Assembly (NCBI GenBank): GCA_963721405.1
Contig: CAVRJA010000002.1
Coordinates: 115,580 to 179,579, forward strand
Origin: an uncultured Acidobacteriota bacterium
Lineage (GTDB): Bacteria; Acidobacteriota; UBA6911
Direction: 5' to 3'
Length of the DNA stretch: 64,000 nucleotides
Part shown: one piece after another, positions 9,365 to 50,232 of the stretch
How the letters are laid out: the number at the start of each line of letters is the position of its first letter
Numbering within the stretch: position 1 is the first letter of the stretch
The notes under the pieces: model-generated
Databases searched by the model: none
What the model was told of the DNA's origin: nothing
The model's input: the letters and a program-made list of their open reading frames with translations, nothing else
Program-made: the position numbers and the translations under genes

Positions 9365-9654
9365 GCAAAGCGTTCCTTGCTCTTCCCCCAAAATCTCAAC
9401 TCCGAAATCCTCGCTGCCGTACCCTCCGCTTTCCTCCCTCCCTCCCTCCTCCAATTTCCGCTTGTACTCCCGGATGGAAATGCTTATAAGTTCACCCAAG
9501 ATTAGCAGACGTCAAGGGAACGTTCCGCCTCACGCACCGGGTGACTGCTCGGAAATTGTGCACGCTGTAGATCCGCTTCAGAACCTGCCCTTGCGAATTC
9601 GATGGCATGGATCGCCATCCTGGCATTCGGAATCAATTCCAAGGAGTACTGCGT

Positions 9655-17381: not shown

Positions 17382-18779
17382 CTATATCTGTGGATCGCCG
17401 GCTGTGGGGAACTCCCTGGTGATGCCGTGCTTTTCCATGCGGTAGATAAAGGTCTTCCGGCTCAAATCCAGCAGTGCGGCCGCGCGCGTCTGATTCCAGC
17501 TCGATTTTTTCAGGGCCCAGAGGATCAGTTCTTTTTCGATGGCCTCCAGGCTGACTCCCATGGGGGACAGCTCGATGCGGTCGGTCTCTATCGCGGCCCG
17601 TTCGTGGCGCAGTTGCACGGGCAGGTCCTCGAGCTTGACTTCCCGGCCTTTTACCAGGACCACCAGCCGTTCGACGACGTTTTCCAGCTCGCGGACGTTT
17701 CCCGGCCATCTGTAATTGCAGAAGTAAGGTATCAGCGTCTGCGGCAGGATCAGGTCGTCGCGGCCGTGTTTTTCGCGGCTCCGGATGAAGAAGTGCTCCA
17801 CGAGTTCAGGGATGTCCTCCGGCCGCTCGCGTAGCGGTGGGATCTCCAGAGGAATCACCGCCAGACGGTAATAGAGATCTTCCCGAAAGACGCCGTCTTC
17901 CACCATGCGCAGCAGGTTGCGGTGCGTCGCCGTCACAATCCTGACATCGACCTGTTGGGTGAGGGTTGCGCCGATCTTTTCGATTTCGCCGTGCTGCAGC
18001 AGTCTCAGCAATTTGACTTGCAGGTTCGGCGGCAGGTCCCCGATTTCATCCAGGAACAGTGTTCCTCCCTCCGCCATCTCCACTTTCCCCTTTTTGTGCG
18101 CGGTCGCGCCGGTGAAGGCGCCTTTGAGGTGGCCGAACAGCTCGGATTCCAGGAGGTCCTGGGGAATCGCGGCGCAATTGATGGTAATGAAGGGATGGTC
18201 TTTGCGCGGGCTGTTGAAGTGAATCGCCTTGGCCACCAGTTCCTTTCCCGTGCCGGTTTCCCCGTGGATCAGGACGGTGGTGTTCGACTGAGCCGCGCGG
18301 GACGCCAGGTCCAGGACGTAGAGCAGCGGCCCGGAACGCCCGATGATGTTCTCGAACCCGTACTTTTCGTCGAGGCTGGACCGGAGCGTCCGCACTTCCT
18401 CCAGCAGGTGTTGGTGCGCGAGCGCCCGCTCGATGATCAGGTTCAACTCCTCGTGATTGACCGGCTTGGTAATGTAATCATAGGCGCCGGCCTTCATCGC
18501 ATCGACGGCGGTCTCGACCGTGCCGAAGGCGGTGGCTATGATGACGCTGATTTCGGGGAAGTCGGCCCGGATCTTCTTGAGGAGTTCCAGACCGGAGATG
18601 CCGGGCATCTTGAGGTCGGTGATCACGAGGTCCTGTTGAGACTCTTGCAGCATCTGCAGGGCTTTAGCACCGCCCGCGACAGCGCTGACCTCATAGCCTG
18701 CGAGTTCCAGCTGAAACTGGACGACGCGCCTCAGGCTCTCGTCGTCGTCGACCACCAGGATGCGCCCTTTGCTTTTCAT
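17382..18779 (-). CDS. Sigma-54-dependent response regulator (NtrC family)
   Basis: REC domain (ILVVDDD...DLKMPG), AAA+ Walker A GETGTGKE, GAFTGA motif, and a C-terminal Fis-type HTH (NQTRAAALLDLSRKTFIYRM). Confidence 0.9.
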   Translation of the reverse strand: MKSKGRILVVDDDESLRRVVQFQLELAGYEVSAVAGGAKALQMLQESQQDLVITDLKMPGISGLELLKKIRADFPEISVIIATAFGTVETAVDAMKAGAYDYITKPVNHEELNLIIERALAHQHLLEEVRTLRSSLDEKYGFENIIGRSGPLLYVLDLASRAAQSNTTVLIHGETGTGKELVAKAIHFNSPRKDHPFITINCAAIPQDLLESELFGHLKGAFTGATAHKKGKVEMAEGGTLFLDEIGDLPPNLQVKLLRLLQHGEIEKIGATLTQQVDVRIVTATHRNLLRMVEDGVFREDLYYRLAVIPLEIPPLRERPEDIPELVEHFFIRSREKHGRDDLILPQTLIPYFCNYRWPGNVRELENVVERLVVLVKGREVKLEDLPVQLRHERAAIETDRIELSPMGVSLEAIEKELILWALKKSSWNQTRAAALLDLSRKTFIYRMEKHGITREFPTAGDPQI

Positions 18780-19873
18780 GCGTCCTGCGCCAGGGGCAGA
18801 AGAATTGAGAAGGTCATGCCCCGATCCGGGTTGTTTCGCGCGCGCAGGATTCCGCCATGCTGGCCGACAATCTGGTGTGCGACCGCGAGTCCCAGGCCGG
18901 TGCCGCTTTCCTTGGTCGTGAAGAACGGGTTGAACAGCTTGTCCAGGTTTTCGGGATCGACTCCGCCTCCCTGGTCAATCACCTCTATCACGAGGCCGGG
19001 TTCCTCGGAACGGGCCGCGAGGCGGATCTCGCCTCCGTCCGGCATGGCCTGGATGGCATTCAGAACCAGGTTCAGAATCACCTGCTTCAGCTGCTCCCCG
19101 TCGCCGTCGAACGTCAGACCGGATGGGGAAACGTCCTTATGCAAGTGAATTGTCTTCCCCTCCGCGGCGTGCGCCACCAGGCCGATGACCGAGTCCAGAA
19201 GCGACTCCACTTTCAGCCGCTGCCGTTGCGGCGCGCGGGGCCGCGCGAAATCGAGGAGGTTCCCCAGCAGGCGGTTCAGGCGGCGGCATTCCTTCTTGAT
19301 GATTCCCAGGAACTCGACCCGATGCTCTTCCGTGACCTGCCCGCCTTCCAGGATCACGGCGGCGCCTTCAATGCTTGCGAGCGGGTTGCGGATTTCGTGC
19401 GCGAGACCCGCCGAAATATTGCCGATGGCAGCCAGCCGGTCGGCTCGTTTGAGGCGCTCGAAGCTGTCGCGCAGATCCTGGTTAGCCTGCTCCAGCTGCC
19501 TGGCCGTTTCCTCCAGTTGCGCGCGCTTCTCACGCTGCTCGTCCGCAAGGAGGCCGGTCGTCACGCCGACCAGGAAGAAGAGCACGATTTCCGCATACTG
19601 GTTGATCACATACCCGGGGAAATCGTGCCAGGCGGTGAGGATGTGCGGGATATAGCAGGCGGCCGACAGTGCCGCAGCCAGCAATCCGCCGATCCAGCCG
19701 AATGAGATCGCCGCATAGACGATCGGCAGGTAATAGAGGCGCTGGAAAATATTGTGCCAGAGAATCAGCGATGCCGGAGTGAGGTAGTGCGCAAGGCTCG
19801 TTCCAAGAATTCCCGCCACAACGAAGATGATCTGAATCCGATTGTTACCGCCCGGCTTCGTAAACATCGACAT
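18776..19873 (-). CDS. Membrane sensor histidine kinase, partner of the NtrC-like regulator
   Basis: H-box SAGLAHEIRNPL. N, G1 and G2 boxes (LNLVLNAIQA, DQGGG, GTGLGLA). Four TM helices at the N-terminus. Its TGA overlaps the regulator ATG (ATGA at 18776-18779). The start at ATG 19873 was chosen just before the first TM helix; the longer ORF to 20233 has no coding character. Confidence 0.8.
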   Translation of the reverse strand: MSMFTKPGGNNRIQIIFVVAGILGTSLAHYLTPASLILWHNIFQRLYYLPIVYAAISFGWIGGLLAAALSAACYIPHILTAWHDFPGYVINQYAEIVLFFLVGVTTGLLADEQREKRAQLEETARQLEQANQDLRDSFERLKRADRLAAIGNISAGLAHEIRNPLASIEGAAVILEGGQVTEEHRVEFLGIIKKECRRLNRLLGNLLDFARPRAPQRQRLKVESLLDSVIGLVAHAAEGKTIHLHKDVSPSGLTFDGDGEQLKQVILNLVLNAIQAMPDGGEIRLAARSEEPGLVIEVIDQGGGVDPENLDKLFNPFFTTKESGTGLGLAVAHQIVGQHGGILRARNNPDRGMTFSILLPLAQDA

Positions 19874-20133
19874 TATCCGGTGATAGGTCCACAGACAATG
19901 AGCCCAGGTTGAAATATACCAGAATCGACCGGGTATTCGGCAGCCAATGCGGATCCGGCGGTACCGCAGGGCGGAAAAGGCGACCATTGGAATTTGCCCA
20001 CCGGGATTCAATCCACAGCGCGACTCCCGGCGGGGAACCCGCTGGATAGGCCGGTCCAACGCGTCACCTTTTTGCTTGTCCCCCCGGCAGCAGTCGGTTA
20101 AGAATCCTCTTTCGTGCAGCAATCGAGATTCTG

Positions 20134-20162
20134 TAGGTCCCGTCCGGCGGCCGGGACCTACT
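20134..20162. repeat. Hairpin containing a third partial copy of the 17-kb repeat end
   Basis: gtaggtcccg-tccggcggc-cgggacctac is a 10-bp stem. The 17-mer ggcggccgggacctact occurs at both 17346-17362 and 20148-20164. Confidence 0.6.
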
Positions 20163-20225
20163 GCCGGCCAGCCGGAGGTCGACACGGTTTTTGCGGTTCC
20201 ATAGCCGAATATAAGGAGCATTCTC

Positions 20226-21488
20226 ATGCGCAATTTTCTACGTTATGGGTGCGTTGCGTCCGCTGTGCTTATGGCATCACTGGCAATCGCCGGAGGGATC
20301 GTCCAGGACAGGGGCGCTCAGCCTCCTTCACAGGCGGGCAGGGGAGCGACTCAGCAAAGACCCGCGGTGGTTTCGCCCGAAGTTCAGCAGGACCGGCGCA
20401 TCGTGTTCCGCATTTACGCACCCCAGGCGGAGAATGTGGGCCTTCAGGGCAGCGATATCACCGCAGGGTTCGGCGAAGGAGGCCGGGGCGGTCCGGGCCT
20501 GCCGGCGATGGTGAAGGGGGAAAACGGAGTCTGGGAGGTGACGGTCGGGCCGATCGAACCCGGCGCCTACCGCTACAACTTTTCAGTGAACGGGGTCGCG
20601 GTGATCGATCCCCGCAATCCATCGACCAGCGAGTCCAATACCAACACCTGGAGCCTGGTGTACGTGCCGGGCGGCGAGTTCATGGATACACGCAACGTTC
20701 CCCACGGCGCAGTGGGTTCGGTCTATTATTATTCGACCGCCCTGAAGCGGACACGCCGCATGCACATCTATACGCCGCCCGGCTATGAAACGGGAGGCGG
20801 GAAATTTCCAGTGTTTTACCTTCTGCACGGCGCCGGTGACTGTGACGATTCCTGGACTTCCGTCGGACGCGCCGGATTCATTCTCGACAACCTGATCGAG
20901 GCCGGGAAGGTGAAGCCGATGATTGTCGTCATGCCAGCGGGTCACACTACCCCAGCAGCTTTCGGGGCCAGGCCGGCGGCTCCTCCTGCAGCTGCCACCA
21001 CCGGTACGCCACAGGCGCCGCCGCGCGATGAATTCCTGGAGGACTTCCTGACCGATATCATGCCGTACGTGGAAAGGAACTACCGTGTCCTGGCCGGCCG
21101 TGCGAATCGAGCCATCGCAGGGCTTTCCATGGGCGGCAGCCAGACGCTCAACATCTCCTTTACCCAGCTTGACAAGTTCGCACATATCGGTGTTTTTAGT
21201 TCCGGGATATTGGGAGGAGGGCGTGGCGCGACCCCGGCTGCCACACCTGGAAGCCAGTGGGAACAGCAGCACCTGGCGATGCTCGACAACGCCGGCCTGA
21301 AAAAGGGCCTCAAGTTGATCTGGTTCAGTACGGGCGTGAACGACGGGCTGATCGCCAACTCCCGGAACACGGTCGATCTGCTCAAGAAACATGGTTTCAC
21401 CCCGGTTTTCAAGGAGAGTCCCGGAGCGCACACCTGGATCAACTGGCGGAACTACTTGAACGAATTCGCGCCACAATTGTTCCGGTGA
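20226..21488 (+). CDS. Secreted esterase (enterochelin/feruloyl-esterase-like alpha/beta hydrolase) with an N-terminal E-set/CBM48-like domain
   Basis: RBS AAGGAG. N-terminal domain RIVFRIYAPQAENVGLQG...NGVWEVTVGPIEPGAYRYNFSVNG. FPVFYLLHGAGD and the nucleophile elbow GLSMGG. Confidence 0.8.
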   Translation: MRNFLRYGCVASAVLMASLAIAGGIVQDRGAQPPSQAGRGATQQRPAVVSPEVQQDRRIVFRIYAPQAENVGLQGSDITAGFGEGGRGGPGLPAMVKGENGVWEVTVGPIEPGAYRYNFSVNGVAVIDPRNPSTSESNTNTWSLVYVPGGEFMDTRNVPHGAVGSVYYYSTALKRTRRMHIYTPPGYETGGGKFPVFYLLHGAGDCDDSWTSVGRAGFILDNLIEAGKVKPMIVVMPAGHTTPAAFGARPAAPPAAATTGTPQAPPRDEFLEDFLTDIMPYVERNYRVLAGRANRAIAGLSMGGSQTLNISFTQLDKFAHIGVFSSGILGGGRGATPAATPGSQWEQQHLAMLDNAGLKKGLKLIWFSTGVNDGLIANSRNTVDLLKKHGFTPVFKESPGAHTWINWRNYLNEFAPQLFR

Positions 21489-22274
21489 GTACCCGCAGGC
21501 TCTTCGGGCACGGCCAACCCTGGATGAATCGTTTGCCCCCCTCAGCACCCTCCTCGTCTTACGACGTGAGGGCAGTGGCCGGGACCGCCGCCGTCCCGGC
21601 GGCACATGCCGGCAGGACGCCGGCGCTCCCGGGATCCGTCGGGGCCCTCGCATTGAATGGAGCGCCGAGGACGCCACACCAGATTGTGCGTGCCGGGATC
21701 CAACAAGAAGTCCGACAGACTACCTCAGATGTCTTAGGGCCTGCGATCCGCCCTGAATCAACCGCTGGACACCTTCCGAGTCCCGTCCCTCGAAGTTGAG
21801 CACGAGATCGACTCGGTGCGCCGGCAGGACAATGCCGTCAGGCATTTTAGGGCCCCCCACTCGGGTTTTGCCTAGTTTTTTGCTTCCCAGCTTTACGGCT
21901 ATCATGCCTTCGATCGTTCGGGCGCCATTTGTCTCGCATGTGGCTGATGACGACGGGAACATCCTCGGGTTCCGGGTTTTGATTGAAGTAGGGTATTGAG
22001 GATGGAACCGTCGGCGAGGGGCACTAGATGAAATGGAGAAGCGACCCGCACTCGAGAGTGTGAACTTCCTTCCGATTTCCCCCCAAAGTTTGCCGACAGC
22101 TTCTCCTGCGGATCGCACGGCATTCGATGCGAAAACCAGGCCGGATGTTGGATGTCTGGTCGGAGCCGGCCATCAAGGACGGGAATAGCTGGTGCGGGGC
22201 TGCTGCCATTTCGCGGTTGTCCCGGGAACGAATCTGGTGCGGCTGTCGAGGCGCCCTTCGCGAGGGGAGGTACG

Positions 22275-22868
22275 GTGGCGATTTTGCTGAAAGTGCGGTT
22301 CCTCAAAGGGCTTCTCCTGGTTGTGGCGCTGGCCGCGGCGGCATTGCTGTACCGCTATTGGCCGGACGCCCGGACGCCTCAGGCATCCTTCTTGCCGGGA
22401 TCGCCGGCGGCGCCCCAGGCGCAACCGAAGCCGCTGTCTCCCGGCAGCGATCACGATTTGAAAGTGCTGGAGATGGCGTTGCAGAAGAACCCGGGCCACA
22501 CGCCCGTGTTGATGCAAATGGCGAATCTGGAGTCTTCCAAGGGCCGTTATCAGGATGCGGAACGTCATCTTCAGGAGATCTTGCGCCGGGAACCGGATAA
22601 TGCGGAAGCCCGGCTGGAGCTTGGCAGAGTGATGTTCCAGCTGGGCGATGTCCAGGGGGCCATCGAGCAGACCGAGTCGATTCTGAAAAAGCAGCCTTCG
22701 AATTCCGATGCCCTGTACAACCTCGGGGCGATCTACGGAAACCTCGGCAACAAAGAACGCGCGGCCGTCTATTGGCAACGCCTTATCTCTGTTGATCCGC
22801 AATCGGCAAGCGGCAAACTCGCGCAGCAGATGATGAGCCGGCTGCAAACGCAGGCAAAAGTACGCTAG
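22275..22868 (+). CDS. Membrane-anchored TPR-repeat protein, first gene of the cytochrome operon
   Basis: The GTG at 22275 has GGAGG 5-9 nt upstream. One N-terminal TM helix (FLKGLLLVVALAAAALLY). Three or four TPR units (YQDAERHLQEILRREPDNAEA, GDVQGAIEQTESILKKQPSNSDALYNLGAIY...). Confidence 0.7.
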   Translation: MAILLKVRFLKGLLLVVALAAAALLYRYWPDARTPQASFLPGSPAAPQAQPKPLSPGSDHDLKVLEMALQKNPGHTPVLMQMANLESSKGRYQDAERHLQEILRREPDNAEARLELGRVMFQLGDVQGAIEQTESILKKQPSNSDALYNLGAIYGNLGNKERAAVYWQRLISVDPQSASGKLAQQMMSRLQTQAKVR

Positions 22869-22985
22869 ACCGGTAGCGAGGCGCCGTGGAGAGGTCGGCG
22901 CAAGTCTGACAGAACCGGATGTTGATTGACAGTTGGAGGGCGCTGCCGGCACCCGTTTTCTGATTTCGAGGGAAGTTTCCAGGGA

Positions 22986-23009
22986 CTACAGCCGGCTGAC
23001 CGGCTGTAG
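22986..23009 (+). other. Perfect hairpin abutting the first ATG of the cytochrome ORF
   Basis: ctacagccgg-ctga-ccggctgtag: a 10-bp stem with a 4-nt loop, ending 2 nt before ATG 23012. Confidence 0.6.
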
Positions 23010-23011
23010 TC

Positions 23012-25513
23012 ATGGCACGGAACGGCATGAAACGGCAAGGTGAGTTCGACATGACAAAACATGAGCTCGATGCCCGCCCTATGTACCCCATGATCCGGCC
23101 GGCGACGAGTGCGGCGGCGTGCCCGTCAGTGCCTCAATGGGCAGCCCGCGGCCGGGGATTGCGTTCGACCCGATGGATCCTGAGCGCATTCGCCATTATG
23201 TGTTCTCTGGCCGTTTGCGGGGATCCCGCGTCGGCTGCGCAGAAAAAGCTCTACCGGGATAAGAACCCCCACGGCCCGATCAAGGTCCCGTGTGAAAGTT
23301 GTCACACTCTGACCAGTTGGTCTCCGATCCGCTCCCACCCCGATTTTGATCACAGTAAGACGGCGTTCCCGCTGCGCGGAATGCATGCGGGCGTGAGCTG
23401 CACGCAATGTCACACCAGCCTCGAGTTTTCCGATGCCGGAACAAAATGTGTGGATTGCCATGCAGACATTCACCGCCGGCAGTTCGGAAGCAACTGCGAG
23501 CAGTGCCACAGTGTCCAGGGATGGCGTGCGTCATTGCAGGCCGTGAACAACCACCAAAACCGGTTTCCGCTCATGGGGGCGCACGCCTCCGTCGATTGTG
23601 AATCATGCCACAAGAGCGCGGCGGTCGGCCTGTTTCGCGGCCTCGGCACTTCCTGCGTATCCTGCCACCAGGCTGACCTCCAAAAGACCAAGGCTCCGGA
23701 TCACCTGGCGGCGAAGTTTCCCACGACGTGCGAAAACTGCCACGGAATGGACAGTTGGTTTGGAGCCAGCTTCGATCACAACCAGGCGACCAGGTTCCCG
23801 CTCACGGGCATGCATGCGCAGACCGGTTGCCTGAGCTGTCACGCCGGCGGCCGCTTCGCCGGCACGCCGATGACCTGCGTCGGCTGCCACGCCGCGGATT
23901 TTTCCCATACAACGAATCCCAATCATGTAACCTCGGGGTTTTCGCAGGACTGCAGCATCTGCCACACCACCGCCAGCTGGGAGAATGCGAAGTTCGATCA
24001 CAATGCCAGCGGGTTTCCGTTAACAGGAGCTCACGCTACGGTTGCGTGCACGCAATGTCACGCGAACAATCAGTTCACGGGGATCTCCACGGCGTGCAGC
24101 TCGTGCCACCTCGCGGACTTCAATGCCACGAAAAACCCGAATCACGCTGCGTCCGGATTTCCGCAGGACTGCGCGGCCTGCCACACGACCGTCAGCTGGT
24201 CGGGCGCCGTCTTCGACCACAACAAGACGCAGTTCCCGCTGACGGGTGCACATGCCTCCGTCGACTGTTCCAAGTGTCATACGAATGGTCAATATGCCAG
24301 CACGCCGACGCAATGCGTAGCCTGCCATCTCGCGGATTTCAACGGCACCAGCAACCCCAACCATGCCGCATCCGGATTTCCTCAGGATTGCAAGGCCTGC
24401 CACACCACCGCCAGTTGGCTGGGAGCCGACTTCGACCACAGCAAGACGCAGTTCCCCCTGACAGGCGCGCACGCCACCGTCGACTGTTCGAAGTGCCACG
24501 TGAACAACGTCTTCACGGGAACTTCCACGCAATGCGTGGCCTGCCACCTGGCGGATTTCAACAACGCCAAGAACCCGGATCATGCCGCCGCAGGGTTCCC
24601 GCAGGACTGCACAACCTGCCACAGCACCACCGGTTGGCAGGGCGCATCATTCGATCACAGCAAAACGGGTTTTGCACTGACCGGAGACCACGCAACCCTG
24701 ACCTGCGTCCAGTGCCACACCAACAACCAGTATGCTGGAACGCCGGCAACCTGCGCGGGATGCCATCAGAAAGACTTTAACGGCACTTCGAATCCGAACC
24801 ATGCCCAGGCCGGATTCCCAACCGATTGCTCCCTGTGCCATTCCACAACCTCATGGCAGGGTGCGACCTTCGATCACAGCAAAACCAAGTTCCCGCTCAC
24901 GGGTGCGCACACCAACCTGCAATGCGCGAGCTGTCACGCAAACGGGCAGTATGCAACCCTGCCGACGACCTGCGTATCGTGCCATCTGGCCCAATTCAAC
25001 GGCACCACCAATCCCAACCATGCCGCCGCGGGATTCCCCCAGGATTGCTCCCTTTGCCACAACACCACTAATTTCAGCACGGCCACGTTCGATCACAGCA
25101 AGACGTCTTTCCCGTTGACGGGGGCGCATGCAAATGTCGCCTGCGCCAGTTGCCATATCGGAAACGTCTTCTCCGGGACGCCGACTGCCTGTTTTTCGTG
25201 CCACGCGGCGGATTACAAGAGCACCACGAATCCGAACCATGCCTCCGCAGGATTTCCGACCACGTGCGCGACGTGCCACACCACAACCACTTGGGCGGGA
25301 GCCACATTCAACCACACCTGGTTTCCGATGACACACGGCGGCGCCAAGATGTGCAGCGATTGCCATCAGAATGCGACCACTTACTCGGTTTTTCAGTGTA
25401 CGAATTGCCACGCTAAGACTCAAACCGACTCCCACCACAGGGGTGTCAGTGGTTATGTCTACAACAGCGCGAACTGCTATCAATGCCATCCCAGGGGAAG
25501 GGGGGACCTATGA
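23012..25513 (+). CDS. Giant multihaem c-type cytochrome with 31 CXXCH motifs
   Basis: I counted 31 CXXCH motifs in the translation. Signal-like segment RWILSAFAIMCSLAVCGDPASA. The start is uncertain: ATG 23012, 23051, 23081 and 23090 are all in frame before the signal peptide. Confidence 0.9.
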   Translation: MARNGMKRQGEFDMTKHELDARPMYPMIRPATSAAACPSVPQWAARGRGLRSTRWILSAFAIMCSLAVCGDPASAAQKKLYRDKNPHGPIKVPCESCHTLTSWSPIRSHPDFDHSKTAFPLRGMHAGVSCTQCHTSLEFSDAGTKCVDCHADIHRRQFGSNCEQCHSVQGWRASLQAVNNHQNRFPLMGAHASVDCESCHKSAAVGLFRGLGTSCVSCHQADLQKTKAPDHLAAKFPTTCENCHGMDSWFGASFDHNQATRFPLTGMHAQTGCLSCHAGGRFAGTPMTCVGCHAADFSHTTNPNHVTSGFSQDCSICHTTASWENAKFDHNASGFPLTGAHATVACTQCHANNQFTGISTACSSCHLADFNATKNPNHAASGFPQDCAACHTTVSWSGAVFDHNKTQFPLTGAHASVDCSKCHTNGQYASTPTQCVACHLADFNGTSNPNHAASGFPQDCKACHTTASWLGADFDHSKTQFPLTGAHATVDCSKCHVNNVFTGTSTQCVACHLADFNNAKNPDHAAAGFPQDCTTCHSTTGWQGASFDHSKTGFALTGDHATLTCVQCHTNNQYAGTPATCAGCHQKDFNGTSNPNHAQAGFPTDCSLCHSTTSWQGATFDHSKTKFPLTGAHTNLQCASCHANGQYATLPTTCVSCHLAQFNGTTNPNHAAAGFPQDCSLCHNTTNFSTATFDHSKTSFPLTGAHANVACASCHIGNVFSGTPTACFSCHAADYKSTTNPNHASAGFPTTCATCHTTTTWAGATFNHTWFPMTHGGAKMCSDCHQNATTYSVFQCTNCHAKTQTDSHHRGVSGYVYNSANCYQCHPRGRGDL
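23729..25279 (+). repeat. Tandem in-frame repeat: seven tri-haem modules, six consecutive periods of exactly 219 bp
   Basis: The third CXXCH of successive modules starts at 23729, 23951, 24170, 24389, 24608, 24827, 25046 and 25265. The spacings are 222, then 219 six times. Confidence 0.9.
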
Positions 25514-27291
25514 ACGGGCCGGTTATGTCTCATGACCCTTGTGCACAAGGAGGCGTTCAGGCGCCACGGCCCCGGGTGAGCGGCCGCAACAACGCTGTCT
25601 GGCGGATACTCCTTGCATGGGTTGTGAGCCTGGCGGCAGGCATGCACGCAAACGCCGATGAGGCGAAGATCCAGACGACCTTTCCGGTGAAATACGTCAC
25701 CGCGGATTCCGTTTACCTCGAAGGAGGGAGCAACCTCGGCCTGGTGCAGGGTCAGAAACTGACCGTACAGCGCAAGAGCCCCGACGGGGGGCAGGCTGAA
25801 CTCAAGGTCGTAGGGAAAATCGAGATTGAAGCCGTCGCATCGGTTTCTGCGGTTGGGAAAATTGTTTCTTCCGATTCGCAGATCGTCGCCGGGGACGTCG
25901 CCTGTCTTTCCCCGGAAGATGTCGCAAAACTCAAGGCCGCGCAGTCTTCCGAAGATGCTGCGAAATATCCGCAGGTAGCCAGCTTCACGTCCGGCGATCC
26001 GCCGGACCAGGAAGTGAGGGATAGCCTGCCCCGGCCTCCTTCCCCGGAGGTCAACCACATTCGCGGGCGCATCGGATTTGACTACAGCAACCTGAGCAGC
26101 CCGTCCAGCGGGATTGGCTCCTTGCAGTACGGCTACACCATCAGGATCGAGGCAACCAGGCTGGGAGGCACATTCTGGAGCATCAGCGGTTTTCAGCGAG
26201 GCCGTGTGTACTCGCAAAATGACACATTGCAGCAGTCGACCTTGCGCGACCTCATCAACCGCACGTACCACCTGAGCCTCTCCTACAATAATCCCGAGTC
26301 GCGCTGGGTCGCGGGCATCGGCCGCCTCTATGTTCCCTGGGCCAGCAGCCTGAGCACCCTCGACGGGTTCTATCTCGGCCGCAGGTACGGCGCCGCCACG
26401 ATCGGCTTGTTCGGCGGGACAACCCCTGATCCGACCTCATGGAACTATAACCGCGATCGCCAGATGGCCGGCACGTTCGTGAATTTTACGGGCGGCAGTT
26501 TCGATTCGTGGCGATACTCAACGACCTCCGGGTTCGCTGTTTCCCGCATCAGCTGGCATCCGGACCGGCAGTTCGGCTTCTTTGAGAACGGGATCTTCTA
26601 CAAGCATTACCTCTCGGTCTACAGCGACATCGAGACCGATTTCAGGAACTCTTCGCAAAATGCGGGTCAATCCGGCTTTACATTCAGCCGCAGCTACCTT
26701 ACGGTCCGGTTGCAGCCGCACAAAATCATCAGTTTCGACGTGAGCGAGAACTACTTCCGCAACATCCCCACCTTCGATCCGCAGTTGATCGGCACGGGGT
26801 TGCTGGATCAGTTCCTGTTTCAGGGGGTCAGCGGCGGAGTCCGCCTCGAACTCCCGTTCCGGGTGGGGCTTTACTCGAATCTCGGCCGCAGCAGCCGGAG
26901 CGGCGATGCCAAGGATTCCTGGAACTACCTCTACGGCGCCACCGTCGGGAATATCTTCCGCACGGGAGTCCGGGCGGATGTCCGTTATTCCAAGTTCGAC
27001 AGCTCATTCGGCCAGGGGAACTACAGATCCCTGCTGGTGAGCCGCGAGATCGGAGAAGGATTCAGGTTCGACTTGCAGGCCGGGCAGGAAGAGGTGATTT
27101 CGACAGTAACCAGCCAGACTCGGGCCCGGTTTCTGAATGGCAACGCGGAGTGGCTGCTGCGCGGCCGCTATGTGCTCGGTCTGGGAATCACCGCCTTTCG
27201 CGGCCAGGTGCAGGATTACAACCAGTACTACATAAGCCTGGGCTATCGTTTCGACTTTCATCACGCCATCCGTGCGCAATCGATCCATTGA
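25510..27291 (+). CDS. Predicted outer-membrane beta-barrel protein with an N-terminal soluble domain, translationally coupled to the cytochrome
   Basis: Its ATG at 25510 overlaps the cytochrome TGA (ATGA). Signal peptide ILLAWVVSLAAGMHANA. About 120 aa of soluble domain, then about 430 aa of alternating-hydrophobic strands (YHLSLSYNN, WVAGIGRLYV, GFAVSRISW, YLTVRLQP, GGVRLELPFRVGLYSNLG, GVRADVRYSKF, YYISLGYRF). Confidence 0.7.
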   Translation: MNGPVMSHDPCAQGGVQAPRPRVSGRNNAVWRILLAWVVSLAAGMHANADEAKIQTTFPVKYVTADSVYLEGGSNLGLVQGQKLTVQRKSPDGGQAELKVVGKIEIEAVASVSAVGKIVSSDSQIVAGDVACLSPEDVAKLKAAQSSEDAAKYPQVASFTSGDPPDQEVRDSLPRPPSPEVNHIRGRIGFDYSNLSSPSSGIGSLQYGYTIRIEATRLGGTFWSISGFQRGRVYSQNDTLQQSTLRDLINRTYHLSLSYNNPESRWVAGIGRLYVPWASSLSTLDGFYLGRRYGAATIGLFGGTTPDPTSWNYNRDRQMAGTFVNFTGGSFDSWRYSTTSGFAVSRISWHPDRQFGFFENGIFYKHYLSVYSDIETDFRNSSQNAGQSGFTFSRSYLTVRLQPHKIISFDVSENYFRNIPTFDPQLIGTGLLDQFLFQGVSGGVRLELPFRVGLYSNLGRSSRSGDAKDSWNYLYGATVGNIFRTGVRADVRYSKFDSSFGQGNYRSLLVSREIGEGFRFDLQAGQEEVISTVTSQTRARFLNGNAEWLLRGRYVLGLGITAFRGQVQDYNQYYISLGYRFDFHHAIRAQSIH

Positions 27292-27303
27292 GGAGAAAGG
27301 GAG

Positions 27304-28101
27304 ATGAAGCCGACCGCCATTTCTATTCTGACCCTCGTCATGATGGGAGCGCACAGCATGCAGTTGCCGGCGGCGCGAGGAGTTGCGGGTTCCGACCTGC
27401 AGCTGGAGGAGGTTCTGGCGCATACGCGCAGGTCCGTGGAGTCATTCTGGCAGAAGATCTCCTCCGTCACATGCACAGAAACGCTGACGCAGCAAAAGAT
27501 CGGGAAGAAGGGCAAGGTTGAATTCAAACACGATTCCGTTTCTGACTACCTGTTGATTACTCATCGGAAAGGCAGCGATCTGAACCTCGAGGAATCGCGG
27601 CTGGTGAAAAAAAACGTCGACAAGTCGAAGGAGCGGCCGCTCCTGACGACCAACGGTTTTTCCACTCTGCTCCTGGTTTTCCATCCGCGCTACCGGGACA
27701 GCTACCGTTTTTACCTGGATGGGGACGATTTGATCGACGGGAAGAGGCTGATTCGGGTTCGATACGAACACGTCGCCGGGACGCCCTCGACGTCCGCTCT
27801 GGAGCTTCGAGGGCGGGTATATCCCTTGGACATGGAGGGAGTCGCATGGATTGATCCGGACACACAGGCGATCAGGAGAGTGAAGGCGGAGTTGAAGGCG
27901 CCCATGGACGACCTGAATCTCAAGGCGTTCTATGCCGTCGTGGACTACCGGCCGCAGCGGTTTGCCTCTTCCTCCGAGGTTTTCTGGCTCCCGTCTACCG
28001 CCGCGATCGACATCGAGACTGCGCGCCAGCACTGGCGGAATGTCCATCGTTTTGCGGACTACAAGCGGTTCTCGGTTGAAGAGAGGATAATATCGAAATG
28101 A
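27304..28101 (+). CDS. Secreted protein of unknown function in the cytochrome operon
   Basis: RBS GGAGAAAGGGAG. Signal-like N-terminus. There is a 12-nt gap to the upstream gene and an ATGA overlap with the downstream gene. I recognise no motif. Confidence 0.7.
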   Translation: MKPTAISILTLVMMGAHSMQLPAARGVAGSDLQLEEVLAHTRRSVESFWQKISSVTCTETLTQQKIGKKGKVEFKHDSVSDYLLITHRKGSDLNLEESRLVKKNVDKSKERPLLTTNGFSTLLLVFHPRYRDSYRFYLDGDDLIDGKRLIRVRYEHVAGTPSTSALELRGRVYPLDMEGVAWIDPDTQAIRRVKAELKAPMDDLNLKAFYAVVDYRPQRFASSSEVFWLPSTAAIDIETARQHWRNVHRFADYKRFSVEERIISK

Positions 28102-29057
28102 CTTCCGGAGAGAGCCAGGCCCAGAGCCAGGTCCAACCCCTAACCCTCACGGCGTTTCCGAACATCCAGAAGCGTTACCGGTGGTGGATGGTTGTGAGCA
28201 CGATGGCCGCAATTTTGCTGGCCGTCGTACTTACCGTTTACGGTTGGGATTATTACACCCTCGATCAGGCGCACCGCCCTTTCTCGCCCAAACATGCCGT
28301 GCTGAAGCCGAGCGGCATCATCGGCCTCCGCCTCGGCATCCTTGGACTCGGAATCTTTGCAGTCATCTACCTTTACCCGCTGAGAAAGCGCTGGGCGGCC
28401 CTGGGAAGAATCGGAAAGACAAAAAACTGGCTGGACTTTCATGTGCTCATGGGTCTGATCGCTCCCATAGTCATCTGCTTCCATTCGTCCTTCAAGATCC
28501 ACGGGTTCGCCGGGATGGCTTTCTGGACCATGATCGGGCTGACTCTAAGCGGCATGGTGGGACGATACTTCTACGCGCAGATTCCACGCAGCCTGAGCGC
28601 CGCCGAGCTGTCGTTGAAAGAGATGCAGACGCTCAGCGCAGAGTTGATGGCCGAACTGAACACGCAAAACGTCTTGCCGGAATCAGCGGTCGTGCGATTG
28701 GTGCGTCTCCCTGAAGGCGCGCGCGTGCAATCCATGCCGCTCCTCAGGGCCCTGGTGGAGATGGCGTGGCTGGACCTCTCACGCCCGTTCAGGGTCTGGG
28801 CTCTCAGGCGCCACGCAACGGGAATGAGTGGAAGCATCCTCACCTTGGGGGGCATCCTGCACACCAGGCAGGCGTCGCTCGAGCGTGTGATTTCTCTGGC
28901 TTCAAAACAGGCAGCCTTGTCGAAACGGGTGTTGTTTCTGGCCAAGACTCACGAGGTGTTTCACCTCTGGCACGTCATTCATCGGCCTTTCAGCATCTCA
29001 TTCGCCATATTCGTCCTCATCCACGTGACGGTGGTGCTGTGGCTCGGCTACTACTGA
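28098..29057 (+). CDS. Five-TM membrane protein with two H-x13-H helices (ferric-reductase-domain / di-haem-b-like)
   Basis: TM3 is DFHVLMGLIAPIVICFH and TM5 is VIHRPFSISFAIFVLIH, each with His-13 residues-His. About 130 aa of soluble loop lies between TM4 and TM5. Confidence 0.7.
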   Translation: MTSGESQAQSQVQPLTLTAFPNIQKRYRWWMVVSTMAAILLAVVLTVYGWDYYTLDQAHRPFSPKHAVLKPSGIIGLRLGILGLGIFAVIYLYPLRKRWAALGRIGKTKNWLDFHVLMGLIAPIVICFHSSFKIHGFAGMAFWTMIGLTLSGMVGRYFYAQIPRSLSAAELSLKEMQTLSAELMAELNTQNVLPESAVVRLVRLPEGARVQSMPLLRALVEMAWLDLSRPFRVWALRRHATGMSGSILTLGGILHTRQASLERVISLASKQAALSKRVLFLAKTHEVFHLWHVIHRPFSISFAIFVLIHVTVVLWLGYY

Positions 29058-29090: not shown

Positions 29091-30614
29091 TCATCGAGCG
29101 GCAATATCCGCCTGGGAAGTTGCCGGGATCCCTGTCTGACTGCCGCCAGGTTTTGCGATTACAAATATCTCCCCGCCTTCGCTGCAGACGTAGAAATCGC
29201 CGCCCTTAATCGCCAGACCGGTCGGGCGCACGAGGCCGGAGACCGAATGCGCCGCCACGACCGAGTGCCCGGCCAGATCAATCGTTATGAGCAGATTGTA
29301 GGCGGCACTCACGGCATGCAGCAGACCGTTTTCAACGGCAGCCCCGGTCACGAACAACTCGTCCAGCGAACGTTTATCGCCGCTGAACGTGATGCCCGAC
29401 GCGGCGGCAATCGCCGGCGCGAACTCTTCCGACAAAGTCAGATCGCGCCTGTCGAAGCGTGAGACCACCAGCCGTTTGAATTTTGAATTGGGCACCGTGA
29501 CGGTGTAGAGCGAATTCGCCGCCGGGTCGAACGCCAGCGACATCACGTACATCATGCGGGCGCGCACCGTGCCCAGGCGGGATCGCGACACTTCCTCAAA
29601 CCGGTCGAAAGACTCGAGAAAGTAGCGGAAGTTCTTGTCCGCGTCCGCCCCGTCTTTCTCGCTTAGAACCACGTAGCTCTTGTTTTCGCCCAGTGCCATT
29701 ACCGTCCGGCCGTCGAGAAACGCCGCGCCGGCAAACTTCCCGAGATCAATCGAGAAGCCGGGATCCACTATGGTATAGCGCAGGATGCGGGTCAGGGAGC
29801 CGTCGACGATGTAGACGCCATTTTGCGTGGTCAGGAGAAAGCGGTCGGTACCGGCGTCGTAAGCGAGGTCGGTCGCGGTTCCGCGAAGGGGCAGGTCCAG
29901 ACGCTTGCGCTCCTTGATCGAAAGTATCGGGAGGTTTGCCAGGGGGCCGGAGCCGGGATCAGCAGGCGCGGCGTCGACGGCAGGCTTTTCGATCGCCCAT
30001 CGACCGCGCAGCGAGATCGGAACCGGCGACCACTCGTCGAGAGACCAGACCCAGTGTTTCGGGTTGAACGAGAAACGAATGGGATCGCCCTGCCCCACGA
30101 AGGGGGGCGGGCCGGTGCTGGCGAATGCCTGGACGATGTTTCCGGCGATCACGACCAGAAACACTACCGTTGCGAGCCTTTCCGGCGGACGCAGCGACCG
30201 TGGCATCCCCGGGGCCTCAGTCCCCTTGAAAATCATGAGCAGCACGCCCATGGTCACGACGCATACCCAAAAAATGAATAGAGCCCAGGTATAGGTGTGC
30301 GCGCCCATGATCTCGGTGCTGAAGCCTTGTCCGACGTCGCGCGCCGCGTGCATCCCGGTGTGGCGCAGGCTCATGAAGACGCCCCAGCCGCCGACGAGCA
30401 CGGAAAGCCCGATGTATTTCGGCCGCGCGCCGTAGCGCAGCACGAAAAGGCCGATGAGCGCGATGATCGCCATTCCGGTGCGCTGTTCCCAGCACATCAC
30501 GCATGGCGAGTCGCCATAGACGAAACCCAGTAGAAAGACCGCGGTGCCGATCGGTACCACCGCCAGGACCAGCACCGCGAAGGCCAGAAAGGTATACACA
30601 CGATCACTTCTCAT
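29091..30614 (-). CDS. DsbB-family membrane thiol oxidoreductase fused to a ~330-aa beta-rich (propeller-like?) C-terminal domain
   Basis: The N-terminus has 4 TM helices with DSPCVMCWEQR, matching the DsbB PC-x-x-C..(E/Q)R motif. A fifth TM helix is followed by a long extracytoplasmic domain. RBS GGAGGGA. Confidence 0.75.
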   Translation of the reverse strand: MRSDRVYTFLAFAVLVLAVVPIGTAVFLLGFVYGDSPCVMCWEQRTGMAIIALIGLFVLRYGARPKYIGLSVLVGGWGVFMSLRHTGMHAARDVGQGFSTEIMGAHTYTWALFIFWVCVVTMGVLLMIFKGTEAPGMPRSLRPPERLATVVFLVVIAGNIVQAFASTGPPPFVGQGDPIRFSFNPKHWVWSLDEWSPVPISLRGRWAIEKPAVDAAPADPGSGPLANLPILSIKERKRLDLPLRGTATDLAYDAGTDRFLLTTQNGVYIVDGSLTRILRYTIVDPGFSIDLGKFAGAAFLDGRTVMALGENKSYVVLSEKDGADADKNFRYFLESFDRFEEVSRSRLGTVRARMMYVMSLAFDPAANSLYTVTVPNSKFKRLVVSRFDRRDLTLSEEFAPAIAAASGITFSGDKRSLDELFVTGAAVENGLLHAVSAAYNLLITIDLAGHSVVAAHSVSGLVRPTGLAIKGGDFYVCSEGGEIFVIAKPGGSQTGIPATSQADIAAR

Positions 30615-30812: not shown

Positions 30813-31081
30813 GGGCTCCTCCTATCTGGAGTTATCGGCGAGTCTAGAGTATCGTCGAAGACATCGGAGACCTCAAAAGAAAAAAGCATCGAATCCGGCG
30901 TGCCGCAGATGCGCAGCACGGGCCGGACGGGTGTCGCGCATTTGAGGGCTGTTTGCCGCCGGGAGATCCGTGTAGCCCGGAAACAGCAAAGCGTTGTAGA
31001 CTTGCGCCGGCAAAGACTGCAGCTCGTGCGCGGCGGGAGGGTCCCGTCGCGGCGGACGCTGCGCAGACACGGAGTCGACCC

Positions 31082-33157
31082 ATGAGACGGATGCTCCTAC
31101 CGGCAGTCCTCCTCAGCGTCACTGCGCTCCTGACGGTTCACGCCGACGAAGGCATGTGGACGTTTGATAACCCGCCCCGCCGGGTTCTGAAGGAACGGTA
31201 TTCATTCGATCCGCCGCAGGAGTGGTTTGATAACGTGCGGCTTTCGACGGCCAAGGTCGGCGACGGAGGCTCGGGGTCGTTCGTGTCGCCGGACGGGCTC
31301 ATTTTCACCAACCAGCACATAGGGCGCAGCCAGGTCACCAAGCTGTCCACTCCGGGCCGGGACTACATCAAAGACGGCTTTTACGCCTCTGCTCTCGAAC
31401 AGGAACTCAAGTGCCCCGACCTGGAGGTGAACGTCCTTGTTTCTTACGAGGATGTGACCGCCCGCGTTCAGGGGGCGGTGAACCCGGGGGCAACCGACGC
31501 CCAGGCCAACAGCCGGCGCCGGGCAGAAATGGCGGCCATCGAAAAGGAATGCGCCGGGAAGACGGGACTGAAGTGCGAGGTGGTAACGCTTTACAGCGGC
31601 GGTGAATACTGGTTGTACCGCAACAAGAGATACACCGACATCCGGCTGGTGTTCGCTCCCGAGGAGCAGATCGCCTATTTTGGCGGCGACTACGACAACT
31701 TCACGTACCCTCGTTACGATTTCGACATCACTTTTTTCCGCGCTTATGAAAACGGGCGCCCGGCGAAAGTCGAACACTTCCTGCGCTGGTCGCGAAGCGG
31801 GGCGAATGAAGGCGAACTGGTGTTTGTGCCCGGGTACCCGGGATCGACCGCGCGCCTCCTGACGATGGCGCAGCTGCGCTATCAGCGTGACCTGGGAAAT
31901 CCCCTGCAGATGCAGGTGTGGACCTCCCGCCGCGACACCCTGGTCCGGTACGCGGCCCACGGCGAGGAACAGGCGCGCAGGGCGTCCACATCCCGGTTGT
32001 CGCTCGAGAATTCGATCAAACGCCTGGTCGGCCAGCAGGAAGGCCTCCAGAACCCGGCGATGCTCAAGACGAAAGAAGCCGCGGAGGCGGACCTGCGAGC
32101 GAAAGTCGCCGCCAACCCGGAGTGGCAGAAGCTCTACGCTCCCGCCTGGTCGCGGATCGAAGCCGCCTATGCCCAAATGCCCGAGTATGCGAGGCGTCTT
32201 GCGTTCTCAAATTTGACCGCGTCCCGCCTGGCCGGATTCGCTTCCTCTTTTATCCGTTATGCGGAAGAGTTACCTAAGCCCAATGCGCAGCGCTACCCGG
32301 AGTTCACCGATGCGCGCATCGAATCTCTCAAGTCGAACCTGTTGTCCGCGGCCCCGGTGTACATGGATCTGGAAGAGGCGACCCTGACCGGGTGGCTCGA
32401 GGAAGGAGAGAAAATTCTCGGCGCCGCTGATCCGTTCATCAGGGCCGCCCTGGGGGCACAATCGGCTGCCGCCGCAGCGAAGCAGGCCATGGCCGGGACG
32501 AAACTCGCCGATGTGAGCTTCCGGAAGTCGCTCCTGGAAGGCGGGCCCGCGGCCATCCAGGCATCCCGGGACCCGTTGCTCGAGATGGCACGCAGGCTCG
32601 AGCCGGTCATCCGCGAGCTGCGTGCGTGGCAGGAAAACAACATCCAGAGTGTCGAGGCCGGAGCCGGCGAAAAGATCGCGAACGCCCGTTTTGCAGCCTA
32701 CGGCAAGTCGGTCTACCCGGATGCCAATTCGAACCTGAGGCTCGAGTTCGGCACCGTTCTGGGTTACGAGGAAGACACTACCCTCGTACCCTACAAGACT
32801 ACTTTCTATGGATTGTATGAGCGCGCCGCCGCATTCAACGAGAAACCGCCGTTCAATCTTCCGGCACGCTGGCGCGCAGGGCGCACCAAACTTGACCTCG
32901 CCACTCCGATGAACTTCGTCTACACGGCCGACACCATCGGCGGCAACTCCGGCAGCCCCGTCATCAACCGAAATGCCGAGATTGTCGGCATCAACTTTGA
33001 CAGCAATATCCAGAAACTGCCCAATCGTTACATGTACATCGACGAGCGCGAGGGCGCGCGGGCCGTGGGCGTGCACTCTGCAGGCATCCTCGAAGGTCTG
33101 TCAAAGTTGTACGGCGCCCAGCGGCTGGTGCAGGAACTGAGGGGGACTATGCGCTGA
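31082..33157 (+). CDS. Peptidase S46 (dipeptidyl-peptidase 7/11 family)
   Basis: Signal peptide then [31 protein letters not shown] (catalytic His region). Catalytic Ser in [22 protein letters not shown]. Confidence 0.9.
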
Positions 33158-33292: not shown

Positions 33293-34015
33293 TCACTTTG
33301 CGTCAGTCAGACCAGCGAGGAGGCGGTCGAGAAAGTCCTTGAGGGCGGGGTAAGGGATCGCACCATTGATGCGTTGTTCGCGGCCGGACTTGGTGCTGAT
33401 GAAGAAGGTGGGGGTGGAGGTGATACTGCGGCTTTCCGCGAGCAGCACCTCCTGTTGAACGGCGGCATCAATCGCGGGATCACCCGCCATCCGCACTACA
33501 CGCATCAACTGCGTCGGGTTCAACGCCTTTGACAGGGCGGGCTCGAAATTTCCGTTGGCGGACCACTGCTCCTGATTCTTGTAAAACTCGTCAGTCACCC
33601 GCAGCCATTCCTCCCGGCCGAGACGGGCGGCCGCAAGTGCCAGACGGGCGGCAGGCCGGGCGAATTGATGCATCTCCAACGGCAGATCATGGTAGACCAC
33701 GCTGACCTTTTGCGTCCCCGCGTAGTCCGCGACGATGGGCTTCACAGTCTCGAGGTAAAATTCCTTGCAGCGCGGGCACTGATAATCCGAAAACACTTCG
33801 ATTCGCACCAGGGATCCCGGTTCGCCGCCGAGGTAGAGTTCCTCCTGCCCGCTGCCGGCCGCCGGCGGCGGCACGAGCCGGACGCCCGGCGGGGTGACCG
33901 CTGCCTTGTCCGCAGGCCGGTCGTTCCGGCATCCGGCCACCGCCCAGGTCAGGAAAATAATCGGGATCACCCACAAAAGCCGGTTCCGGCGCTTCGCGGT
34001 CTCTGCCATTTCCAT
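33293..34015 (-). CDS. DsbA-like thioredoxin-fold lipoprotein
   Basis: Lipobox WAVAGC, active site CPRC (FSDYQCPRCKEF), and TPTFFI (cis-Pro loop region). Confidence 0.8.
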   Translation of the reverse strand: MEMAETAKRRNRLLWVIPIIFLTWAVAGCRNDRPADKAAVTPPGVRLVPPPAAGSGQEELYLGGEPGSLVRIEVFSDYQCPRCKEFYLETVKPIVADYAGTQKVSVVYHDLPLEMHQFARPAARLALAAARLGREEWLRVTDEFYKNQEQWSANGNFEPALSKALNPTQLMRVVRMAGDPAIDAAVQQEVLLAESRSITSTPTFFISTKSGREQRINGAIPYPALKDFLDRLLAGLTDAK

Positions 34016-50222: not shown

Positions 50223-50232
50223 AGGAATCGAG

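Follow-up and report, generated by a model that had tools for sequence, protein, structure and literature searches.

A 64,000-nt stretch of DNA from an uncultured bacterium of the Acidobacteriota (UBA6911; assembly GCA_963721405.1, contig CAVRJA010000002.1, positions 115,580–179,579), hereafter the window, meaning the whole stretch, carries at 22275–29057 five plus-strand genes for a tetratricopeptide repeat (TPR) protein, a 31-haem c-type cytochrome, an outer-membrane barrel protein, a secreted protein (SEC) and an inner-membrane protein (IMP), in this order. The locus is real, conserved and functionally coherent, and we infer its function to be that of a reduced acidobacterial variant of the PCC3 type of porin–cytochrome system, which could take electrons through all layers of the cell envelope; the probability of this reading is put at roughly 0.6. 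A porin–cytochrome electron conduit, as already proposed by a first-pass annotation of the same DNA, remained the best reading in the light of the synteny, the barrel model, the c7-type haem polymer and the predicted bis-His geometry presented below.

PCC3 was defined from genomes by He, Barco, Emerson and Roden (2017; Front Microbiol 8:1584; PMC5566968). It is a four-gene unit with two cytochromes, described only in Fe(II)-oxidising and other Alpha-, Beta- and Gammaproteobacteria, such as Sideroxydans lithotrophicus ES-1 (Slit_0867–0870 and Slit_1446–1449) and Leptothrix cholodnii SP-6. Its porin has 22–42 predicted strands (22 in L. cholodnii), its "periplasmic" cytochrome about 21–27 haems and its "extracellular" cytochrome up to 85, with 22–39 aa per haem and T/S/A/G-rich repeats, and its inner-membrane protein of about 300 aa has five transmembrane (TM) helices, of which TM3 and TM5 carry WX3HX13H and TM4 carries SGXXG. 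All of these features of the inner-membrane protein recurred in gene 5 of the window, which encodes 319 aa. Similarly, the window barrel was modelled with 22 strands and its gene overlaps the cytochrome gene by 4 nt, and the window cytochrome agreed with the PCC3 cytochromes in its 31 haems, 24.4–26.9 aa per haem, 73-aa repeats and composition rich in T (12%), A (11.6%), S (8.5%) and G (7.4%).

Gene Organization and the 31-Haem Cytochrome

The six-frame list of open reading frames (ORFs) confirmed every sequence-level statement of the first-pass annotation, namely five same-strand genes with gaps of 143, −4, 12 and −4 nt between neighbours from gene 1 to gene 5, 4-nt ATGA overlaps at 25510–25513 (cytochrome/barrel) and 28098–28101 (SEC/IMP), and 31 CXXCH motifs (Table 1). 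Its description of the whole as one translationally coupled operon held for genes 2–5, to which tight coupling was restricted, but not for the TPR gene, because a 143-nt gap with a hairpin inside it lies between this gene and the cytochrome gene. This perfect hairpin with an 8-bp stem (22989–23008; ACAGCCGG CTGA CCGGCTGT) ends 3 nt before ATG 23012 and is followed by no T-run. The starts of gene 1 (GTG 22275, after GGGAGG) and gene 3 (ATG 25510, after GGGGGG) were supported by ribosome-binding sites, with longer ORF forms beginning at 22152 and 25483, respectively. As ATG 23051 has a better ribosome-binding site (AAGGTGAG) than ATG 23012, the cytochrome start at 23012 may be 13 codons too early; alternatively, the hairpin could be regulatory.

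Table 1. Genes of the cluster and of the divergent regulatory pair, with positions in the window.
Feature	Positions	Strand	Basis
TPR protein, membrane-anchored	22275–22868 (ORF from 22152)	+	TPR Pfam matches, N-terminal hydrophobic helix
31-haem c-type cytochrome	23012–25513 (alternative start 23051)	+	31 CXXCH, Cytochrome_C7
Outer-membrane barrel protein	25510–27291	+	AlphaFold2, Foldseek
SEC, secreted 265-aa protein	27304–28101	+	Signal peptide in translation
IMP, PCC3-type inner-membrane protein, 5 TM, 319 aa	28098–29057	+	Invariant His, AlphaFold2
Sigma-54-dependent response regulator	17382–18779	−	Pfam Response_reg + Sigma54_activat + HTH_8
Histidine kinase	18776–20233	−	Pfam HisKA + HATPase_c

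The cytochrome, the sole multihaem ORF of the window, has a Sec signal peptide and exactly 31 CXXCH motifs, with no CX3-4CH or CXXCK variants. Its motif spacing repeats as 32/16/25, giving a 73-aa unit with three haems, of which there are seven regular copies with pairwise identities of 45–71%; on either side of them lie more divergent segments that also bear haems. Within the gene, a DNA tandem repeat with a period of 219 nt spans 24104–24667. The profile searches named as a check in the first-pass annotation matched the protein to Pfam Cytochrome_C7 (PF14522) over 12 stretches (E 4e-35, 119.8 bits vs. a cut-off of 24.8), while NCBIfam TIGR04257 (nanowire_3heme) gave a borderline match over five stretches (38.6 bits, just under the cut-off of 40). 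Judged from its sequence, the cytochrome is thus a polymer of c7-type three-haem units. Since each three-haem unit holds six His and the mature protein only seven Met, all haems can be bis-His.

Conservation of the Cluster

By a scan with one genome per species, the barrel gene was confirmed at 361 loci, and the best 80 of the 361 were examined; all 80 belonged to metagenome-assembled genomes of Acidobacteriota (Terriglobia, Terriglobales, Bryobacterales, Solibacteraceae and Acidipila). Downstream of the barrel gene, 76 loci offered 2.3 kb or more of sequence; of these, 59 had the order barrel–SEC–IMP, eight had SEC only and nine had neither. The neighbourhood is therefore conserved, and a chance association of genes was rejected by these synteny counts. 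Both the barrel family and the IMP family run to thousands of members.

The commonest upstream layout consisted of a 23-haem cytochrome gene (38/50 loci) followed by a cytochrome gene of variable length that adjoins the barrel gene. The haem number of this variable cytochrome was 3n+1 in 56 of 64 cases (22, 25, 28, 31, 34, 37, 40, 43, 46, 55, 58, 61, 67, 76 and 85), a series that is copy-number variation of the three-haem unit, and the 31-haem protein of the window is its orthologue. The single 31-haem subunit emphasized at first is consequently a property of this locus and not of its relatives, most of which have a 23-haem cytochrome plus a variable one.

Sub-types of the cluster were also observed (L002, L009–L011, L016, L018, L027; L060, L066, L078, L080), one consisting of a TPR gene, 13-haem and 46–61-haem cytochromes, barrel and SEC without the IMP, another of a sigma-54 regulator/kinase pair, a 22–28-haem cytochrome and the barrel alone; two different versions occurred in one 6.9-Mb genome (L001 and L002). 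TPR homologues flanked the cluster, upstream or downstream, in 16 of 82 related loci, and, because these genes mostly occur in versions without the IMP, the window is a hybrid. The TPR protein of the window itself has an N-terminal hydrophobic anchor and three to four TPRs, matching many generic TPR families of Pfam (E 3e-18 to 1e-9) and, below the family cut-off, TPR_CcmH_CycH (E 2e-8), so it is possibly a CcmI/CycH-like apocytochrome chaperone or scaffold.

The core of IMP, cytochromes and barrel is shared with Bacteroidota and Calditrichota. The cultured Emticicia oligotrophica DSM 17448 (Bacteroidota) carries on its plasmid pEMTOL02 the order ccsA–IMP–flavoprotein–23-haem–40-haem–barrel–GW lipoprotein, and compared with the window its IMP matched at E 5e-42, its cytochrome was 42% identical and its barrel aligned at 97.5% by hhalign. 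In a 6.3-Mb Calditrichota genome, the order was IMP–20-haem–25-haem–barrel–49-haem–flavoprotein, with an IMP homologue that matched DUF4405 at E 0.0015. When IMP and cytochrome queries were run against a plasmid database, only Emticicia was found, plus a partial match in Roseomonas, where a partial IMP-like gene adjoins a ferredoxin reductase and a 2Fe-2S protein.

The Emticicia cluster opens with a gene for a 1028-aa CcsA, the system II cytochrome c synthase (L083, 8884–11970), and this suggests that the 23- and 40-haem proteins have their haems attached by a machine of their own. In Calditrichota, the gene immediately upstream of that for the IMP encodes a BNR/YCF48-like beta-propeller whose C-terminal domain is a sorting domain for type IX secretion (L085, 8708–9895); by analogy with the NHL propellers of other clusters for extracellular electron transfer (EET), it is possibly a surface partner.

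The Barrel and Secreted Proteins

In the AlphaFold2 model of gene 3, built from 38 homologues (pLDDT 72, pTM 0.57), the signal peptide is followed by a small N-terminal beta domain (about aa 57–133), a helical linker and a barrel (aa 182–583), for which DSSP counted 22 strands. A Foldseek search of the PDB with this model returned outer-membrane barrels only (OccK/OprD, AlgE, PapC/FimD ushers and MOMP) at E of about 1e-8, with low TM-scores of 0.3–0.47, and MtrB was absent from the top 50 matches. No sequence relative was found in Pfam, NCBIfam or the PDB, including a profile search, and together with the low TM-scores this places gene 3 outside the known barrel families. The protein is accordingly modelled with 22 strands as an outer-membrane barrel, in keeping with the beta-barrel called from the letters alone, and no known unrelated outer-membrane protein family was matched. 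Its family has >2225 homologues, including those of Emticicia and Calditrichota, and adjoins multihaem cytochromes in 82/82 loci and across the three phyla.

This constant association bears on a further reading, in which the cytochrome stays within the periplasm as a capacitor that stores or buffers electrons and the barrel is an ordinary porin that merely happens to share its transcript. Charge storage has been suggested in the literature for many-haem proteins, and the cytochrome bears no localisation signal beyond the Sec signal peptide. However, a barrel beside cytochromes in all 82 loci and in three phyla argues for a specific partnership, and we consider the capacitor highly improbable.

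SEC has a signal peptide visible in its translation, had no match in Pfam or NCBIfam and no sequence relative in a PDB profile search. Its family, seen only in Acidobacteriota, comprises >420 homologues, all named "hypothetical". In 67 of 76 loci, the SEC gene comes directly after that of the barrel. A kinship with the GW-domain lipoprotein at the same position in Emticicia was rejected, as hhalign showed no relation.

The strict linkage of SEC to the barrel would also suit a different role of the two, in which the barrel is a secretion pore, usher- or two-partner-like, that exports the cytochrome with SEC as a periplasmic chaperone, and no static sheath of the MtrAB kind is formed. The Foldseek matches do include the PapC/FimD ushers, which likewise have an N-terminal periplasmic domain, the N-terminal domain of the barrel protein is conserved, and some loci show an AMIN ORF and a long Pro/Ala-rich linker. 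But the TM-scores to the ushers were 0.26–0.36 when normalised to the query and 0.23–0.37 when normalised to the usher chains, ordinary porins were equally good, neither a plug nor C-terminal usher domains were evident, and SEC had no chaperone-like match. A secretion pore thus seems quite improbable, and the barrel is preferably read as part of a PCC3-type conduit.

In some Terriglobia loci (e.g., L052, 8693–11641), the barrel ORF was 982 aa long owing to a Pro/Ala/Ser-rich low-complexity N-terminal extension of about 400 aa, and a 171-aa ORF in front of it encoded an AMIN domain (L052, 8148–8663; Pfam E 1e-10); other loci with a "gap" of 0.65–1.8 kb before the barrel share this arrangement. 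AMIN is presumably the peptidoglycan-binding domain of PilQ/AmiC, and, if this attribution is right, the AMIN ORF could tie the barrel to the cell wall.

The Inner-Membrane Protein and Its Flavoprotein Partner

The AlphaFold2 model of the IMP (pLDDT 82) comprises five membrane helices and a helical insert of about 125 aa between TM4 and TM5. The motifs are W111LDFH115-x13-H129 in TM3, S151GMVG155 in TM4 and W291HVIH295-x13-H309 in TM5, and H66, H115, H129, H292, H295, H309, W111, W291 and S151-G152-x2-G155 were invariant in 34 homologues (the IMP profile finds 3081 representatives at 50% identity). The five helices and two His-x13-His pairs noted in the first reading were thus borne out, with all four His invariant. 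By the positive-inside rule, the topology is N-in/C-out: the N-terminus, loop 94–110 and the insert of about 125 aa then lie in the cytoplasm, and of the four His, H115 and H295 come close to the cytoplasmic side of the membrane and H129 and H309 close to its periplasmic side. This is the predicted bis-His geometry expected for two stacked b haems. Membership in the ferric-reductase domain family, to which the first-pass annotation had likened the protein, could not be established: Pfam Ferric_reduct (PF01794) matched at E 0.014 with 15.9 bits vs. a cut-off of 28 and covered aa 79–139 only, and Foldseek gave nothing significant (best E 0.87; STEAP1 E 2.4, TM-score 0.19). Because of the latter result, a ferric-reductase-like label stays at the level of motifs.

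Of 58 loci whose sequence reached far enough, 50 encoded a flavoprotein of about 460 aa directly downstream of the IMP, and a further three had one nearby; five had the IMP without it, and it was never found in loci without the IMP. The flavoprotein has an N-terminal membrane helix, a ferredoxin domain for 2x[4Fe-4S] and a Pyr_redox_3/Pyr_redox_2 FAD/NAD(P)-binding domain. In 10 loci, a minus-strand gene follows the IMP gene; as a candidate component it was rejected, since its composition, together with a plus-strand flavoprotein match in most of the 10, makes it look like a shadow ORF antisense to the flavoprotein gene.

The position of the flavoprotein gene directly after the IMP gene in most relatives suggests an entry fed by NAD(P)H, unlike the quinone hypothesis of He et al. 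(PMC5566968). The commonest form of the cluster would then probably be fed by cytoplasmic NAD(P)H, independently of quinones, in a split Nox-like arrangement, with electrons passing from NAD(P)H through the membrane-anchored FAD/2x[4Fe-4S] protein and the di-haem b protein to a periplasm-spanning polymer of 22–85 haems, its length tuned in three-haem steps, then to the 22-strand barrel and to extracellular minerals or humics. This full chain is advanced tentatively, at odds well below even. If true, soil Acidobacteriota, Bacteroidota and Calditrichota would possess a route for dumping or taking up electrons that bypasses the quinone pool.

He et al. likened the PCC3 inner-membrane protein to a ferric-reductase domain and proposed a quinol link (PMC5566968), so that the IMP might be a quinol:cytochrome oxidoreductase, its association with the flavoprotein being incidental or serving another purpose. 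Such a role would account for the window and for the five loci that hold the IMP without the flavoprotein, the published four-gene proteobacterial PCC3 includes no flavoprotein, and the di-haem b proteins of the clan are stated there to react often with quinones. In contrast, the flavoprotein lies beside or within the cluster in 50/58 loci as well as in two other phyla, the conserved cytoplasmic insert of about 125 aa looks in the model like a docking surface and not like a quinone site, and no quinone-site motif was identified in the IMP. A quinol oxidoreductase is possible but on balance doubtful.

Proposed Electron Path

Under the preferred reading of a PCC3-type conduit, the IMP would move electrons across the cytoplasmic membrane by way of its two stacked b haems, and the haem polymer would span the periplasm and relay them. 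GSU1996 of Geobacter reportedly measures 12 nm with 12 haems, i.e., about 1 nm per haem, and by this analogy the 22-haem minimum of the variable cytochrome would be about the width of the periplasm. The barrel would let the polymer or a partner reach the surface, where electrons could be delivered to Fe(III)/Mn(IV) minerals or to humic and particulate organic matter. As the window holds neither the flavoprotein nor the 23-haem cytochrome, entry in its version would need the quinol pool or a flavoprotein whose gene lies elsewhere. The TPR protein most likely would help to mature or position the giant apocytochrome; this gene in the window and ccsA in Emticicia together point to a dedicated maturation of very long apocytochromes.

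The same parts might work in reverse, taking up electrons from extracellular Fe(II), Mn(II) or reduced humics and handing them on to NAD(P)+ through the flavoprotein, or to quinone. It was in oxidisers of Fe(II) and Mn(II) that PCC3 was discovered, and for them it was proposed; Mto/Mtr conduits are considered reversible in the literature, and an inward path from the P-side to the N-side would be favoured by the membrane potential according to established bioenergetics. However, Fe(II) failed to induce PCC3 in strain ES-1, and the carriers found here are soil and peat Acidobacteriota, which are generally organotrophs, so that inward flow is regarded as unlikely and outward flow through the PCC3-type conduit is preferred.

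Several observations weigh against this conduit. The PCC3-type system is known from genes alone in all its members, and in Sideroxydans ES-1 the PCC3 genes were down-regulated, not induced, on Fe(II). The likeness of the locus to PCC3 is one of published architecture and motifs, and PCC3 has two cytochromes, as do most related loci, whereas the window has one. Neither the flavoprotein nor the second (23-haem) cytochrome is encoded within the 64 kb, and a lipobox or other localisation signal was absent in both cytochrome classes. The IMP has no significant relative in Pfam, a PDB profile search or Foldseek, for which reason its binding of haem b is predicted from motifs alone.

Neighbouring Genes

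Upstream of the cluster and divergent from it lies a regulator/kinase pair (17382–20233) that may, tentatively, control the cluster; homologous pairs occurred no more than 10 kb from the barrel gene in 11/82 related loci, e.g., L002. A search for sigma-54 −24/−12 promoters (TGGCAC-N5-TTGC, at most one mismatch) gave no site near the operon and counts at chance, and scans for sigma-70 promoters and terminators were at or below chance.

Convergent with the operon end, a minus-strand gene at 29091–30614 encodes a 507-aa protein whose DsbB match is limited to its N-terminal 90 aa or so, the other 400 or so being unassigned; because a homologue was present in 0/82 related loci, this DsbB fusion probably lies outside the system. 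Also near the operon end are an S46 peptidase (30953–33157, plus strand) and a DsbA-like thioredoxin (33293–34015, minus strand). At 9607–13545 (plus strand), a 1312-aa outer-membrane protein with CarboxypepD_reg and OMP_b-brl_4 domains is encoded, unrelated to the operon barrel and of a type common in Acidobacteriota. Two very long plus-strand ORFs of the window, 50209–53907 and 57116–61561, encode 1232 and 1481 aa, respectively.

Comparison With Known Systems

The MtrCAB, MtoAB and PioAB systems, MtrCAB being that of Shewanella, likewise combine a multihaem cytochrome with a dedicated outer-membrane barrel. The Mtr type, however, has a 26-strand barrel, 10 haems and the quinol oxidase CymA, in contrast to the 22 strands, 31 haems in one chain and di-haem b protein predicted for the window. 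Among the proteins of the locus, none matched Pfam MtrB_PioB at E ≤ 1, the DmsE/MtrA decahaem model TIGR03508 scored the window cytochrome at 31.1 bits vs. a cut-off of 192. As to the Pcc and Ext conduits of Geobacter (OmbB-OmaB-OmcB, ExtABCD, ExtEFG and ExtHIJKL), whose cytochromes comprise 8- or 12-haem periplasmic and lipoprotein forms, NCBIfam ExtN and ExtO gave chance-level matches only (E about 0.25), and the cytochromes of the acidobacterial loci have no lipobox.

The cytochrome itself resembles in design the Geobacter "nanowire" proteins GSU1996, GSU0592 and GSU2210, which are likewise elongated chains of tandem c7-type three-haem domains, with four units compared with about ten in the window. 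Each GSU1996 domain is said to have one His-Met haem, whereas the window haems can all be bis-His. To our knowledge, the Geobacter c7 polymers are not encoded beside a barrel and an IMP.

Like the ferric-reductase superfamily (NOX, Fre, STEAP and MsrQ/YedZ; PF01794) and the related DUF4405, the IMP has on each of TM3 and TM5 two His with a spacing of 13 residues, the arrangement for two b haems stacked across the membrane, and the cytoplasmic FAD/NAD(P)H partner in most related loci is NOX-like. However, the ferric-reductase fold has six helices, whereas the IMP has five and an insert of about 125 aa before the last, and the reductase of the related loci is, unlike in the ferric-reductase family, a separate polypeptide with two [4Fe-4S] clusters.

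Within the same phylum, Fiorito et al. (2026; bioRxiv 10.64898/2026.05.27.727921) described EET1, a porin–NHL–13-haem OmcE-like cluster, and EET2, an MtrC–DmsE–porin cluster, which are proposed to serve EET to organic matter and would share a similar habitat if the window comes from soil or peat. An identity of the locus with EET1 or EET2 was rejected, since those clusters have 8–13-haem cytochromes, an NHL propeller and an MtrB-like porin, and none of the five window families is described among them. The Verrucomicrobia porin–multihaem cytochrome cluster, with eight haems, and the porin–cytochrome clusters of Holophaga, of MtrB and ExtB/E types, were likewise different.

The statement of the first-pass annotation that the composition matches no characterised conduit was too broad. 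The architecture is already described, as PCC3 in 2017, and the statement is true only in the sense that no PCC3 system has been characterised, later papers on iron oxidisers still calling PCC3 functionally unverified. Haem counts of up to 85 occur in PCC3 and in the acidobacterial relatives alike. In the accessible part of the PCC3 description, no 265-aa secreted protein, TPR protein or FeS-flavoprotein is reported, and subgroup II of PCC4 is the only one mentioned with an adjacent Fe-S gene. No literature linking PCC3 to the Acidobacteriota was found, and the acidobacterial clade, the orphan SEC, the 3n+1 haem rule and the flavoprotein link are new as far as found.

The Acidobacteriota are among the most abundant bacteria of soil and peat, where electron disposal under anoxia matters for carbon turnover and methane, and all components of the cluster are annotated as "hypothetical" despite 361 confirmed loci. 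The interest of the system lies in this abundance in a dominant soil phylum, in its modular 3n+1 haem wire and in the flavoprotein link, the last two of which make the PCC3-type mechanism, functionally unverified since 2017, testable. Compared with the known systems, the locus is best filed with the predicted PCC3-type systems, as their reduced acidobacterial variant, and not as a categorically new conduit.

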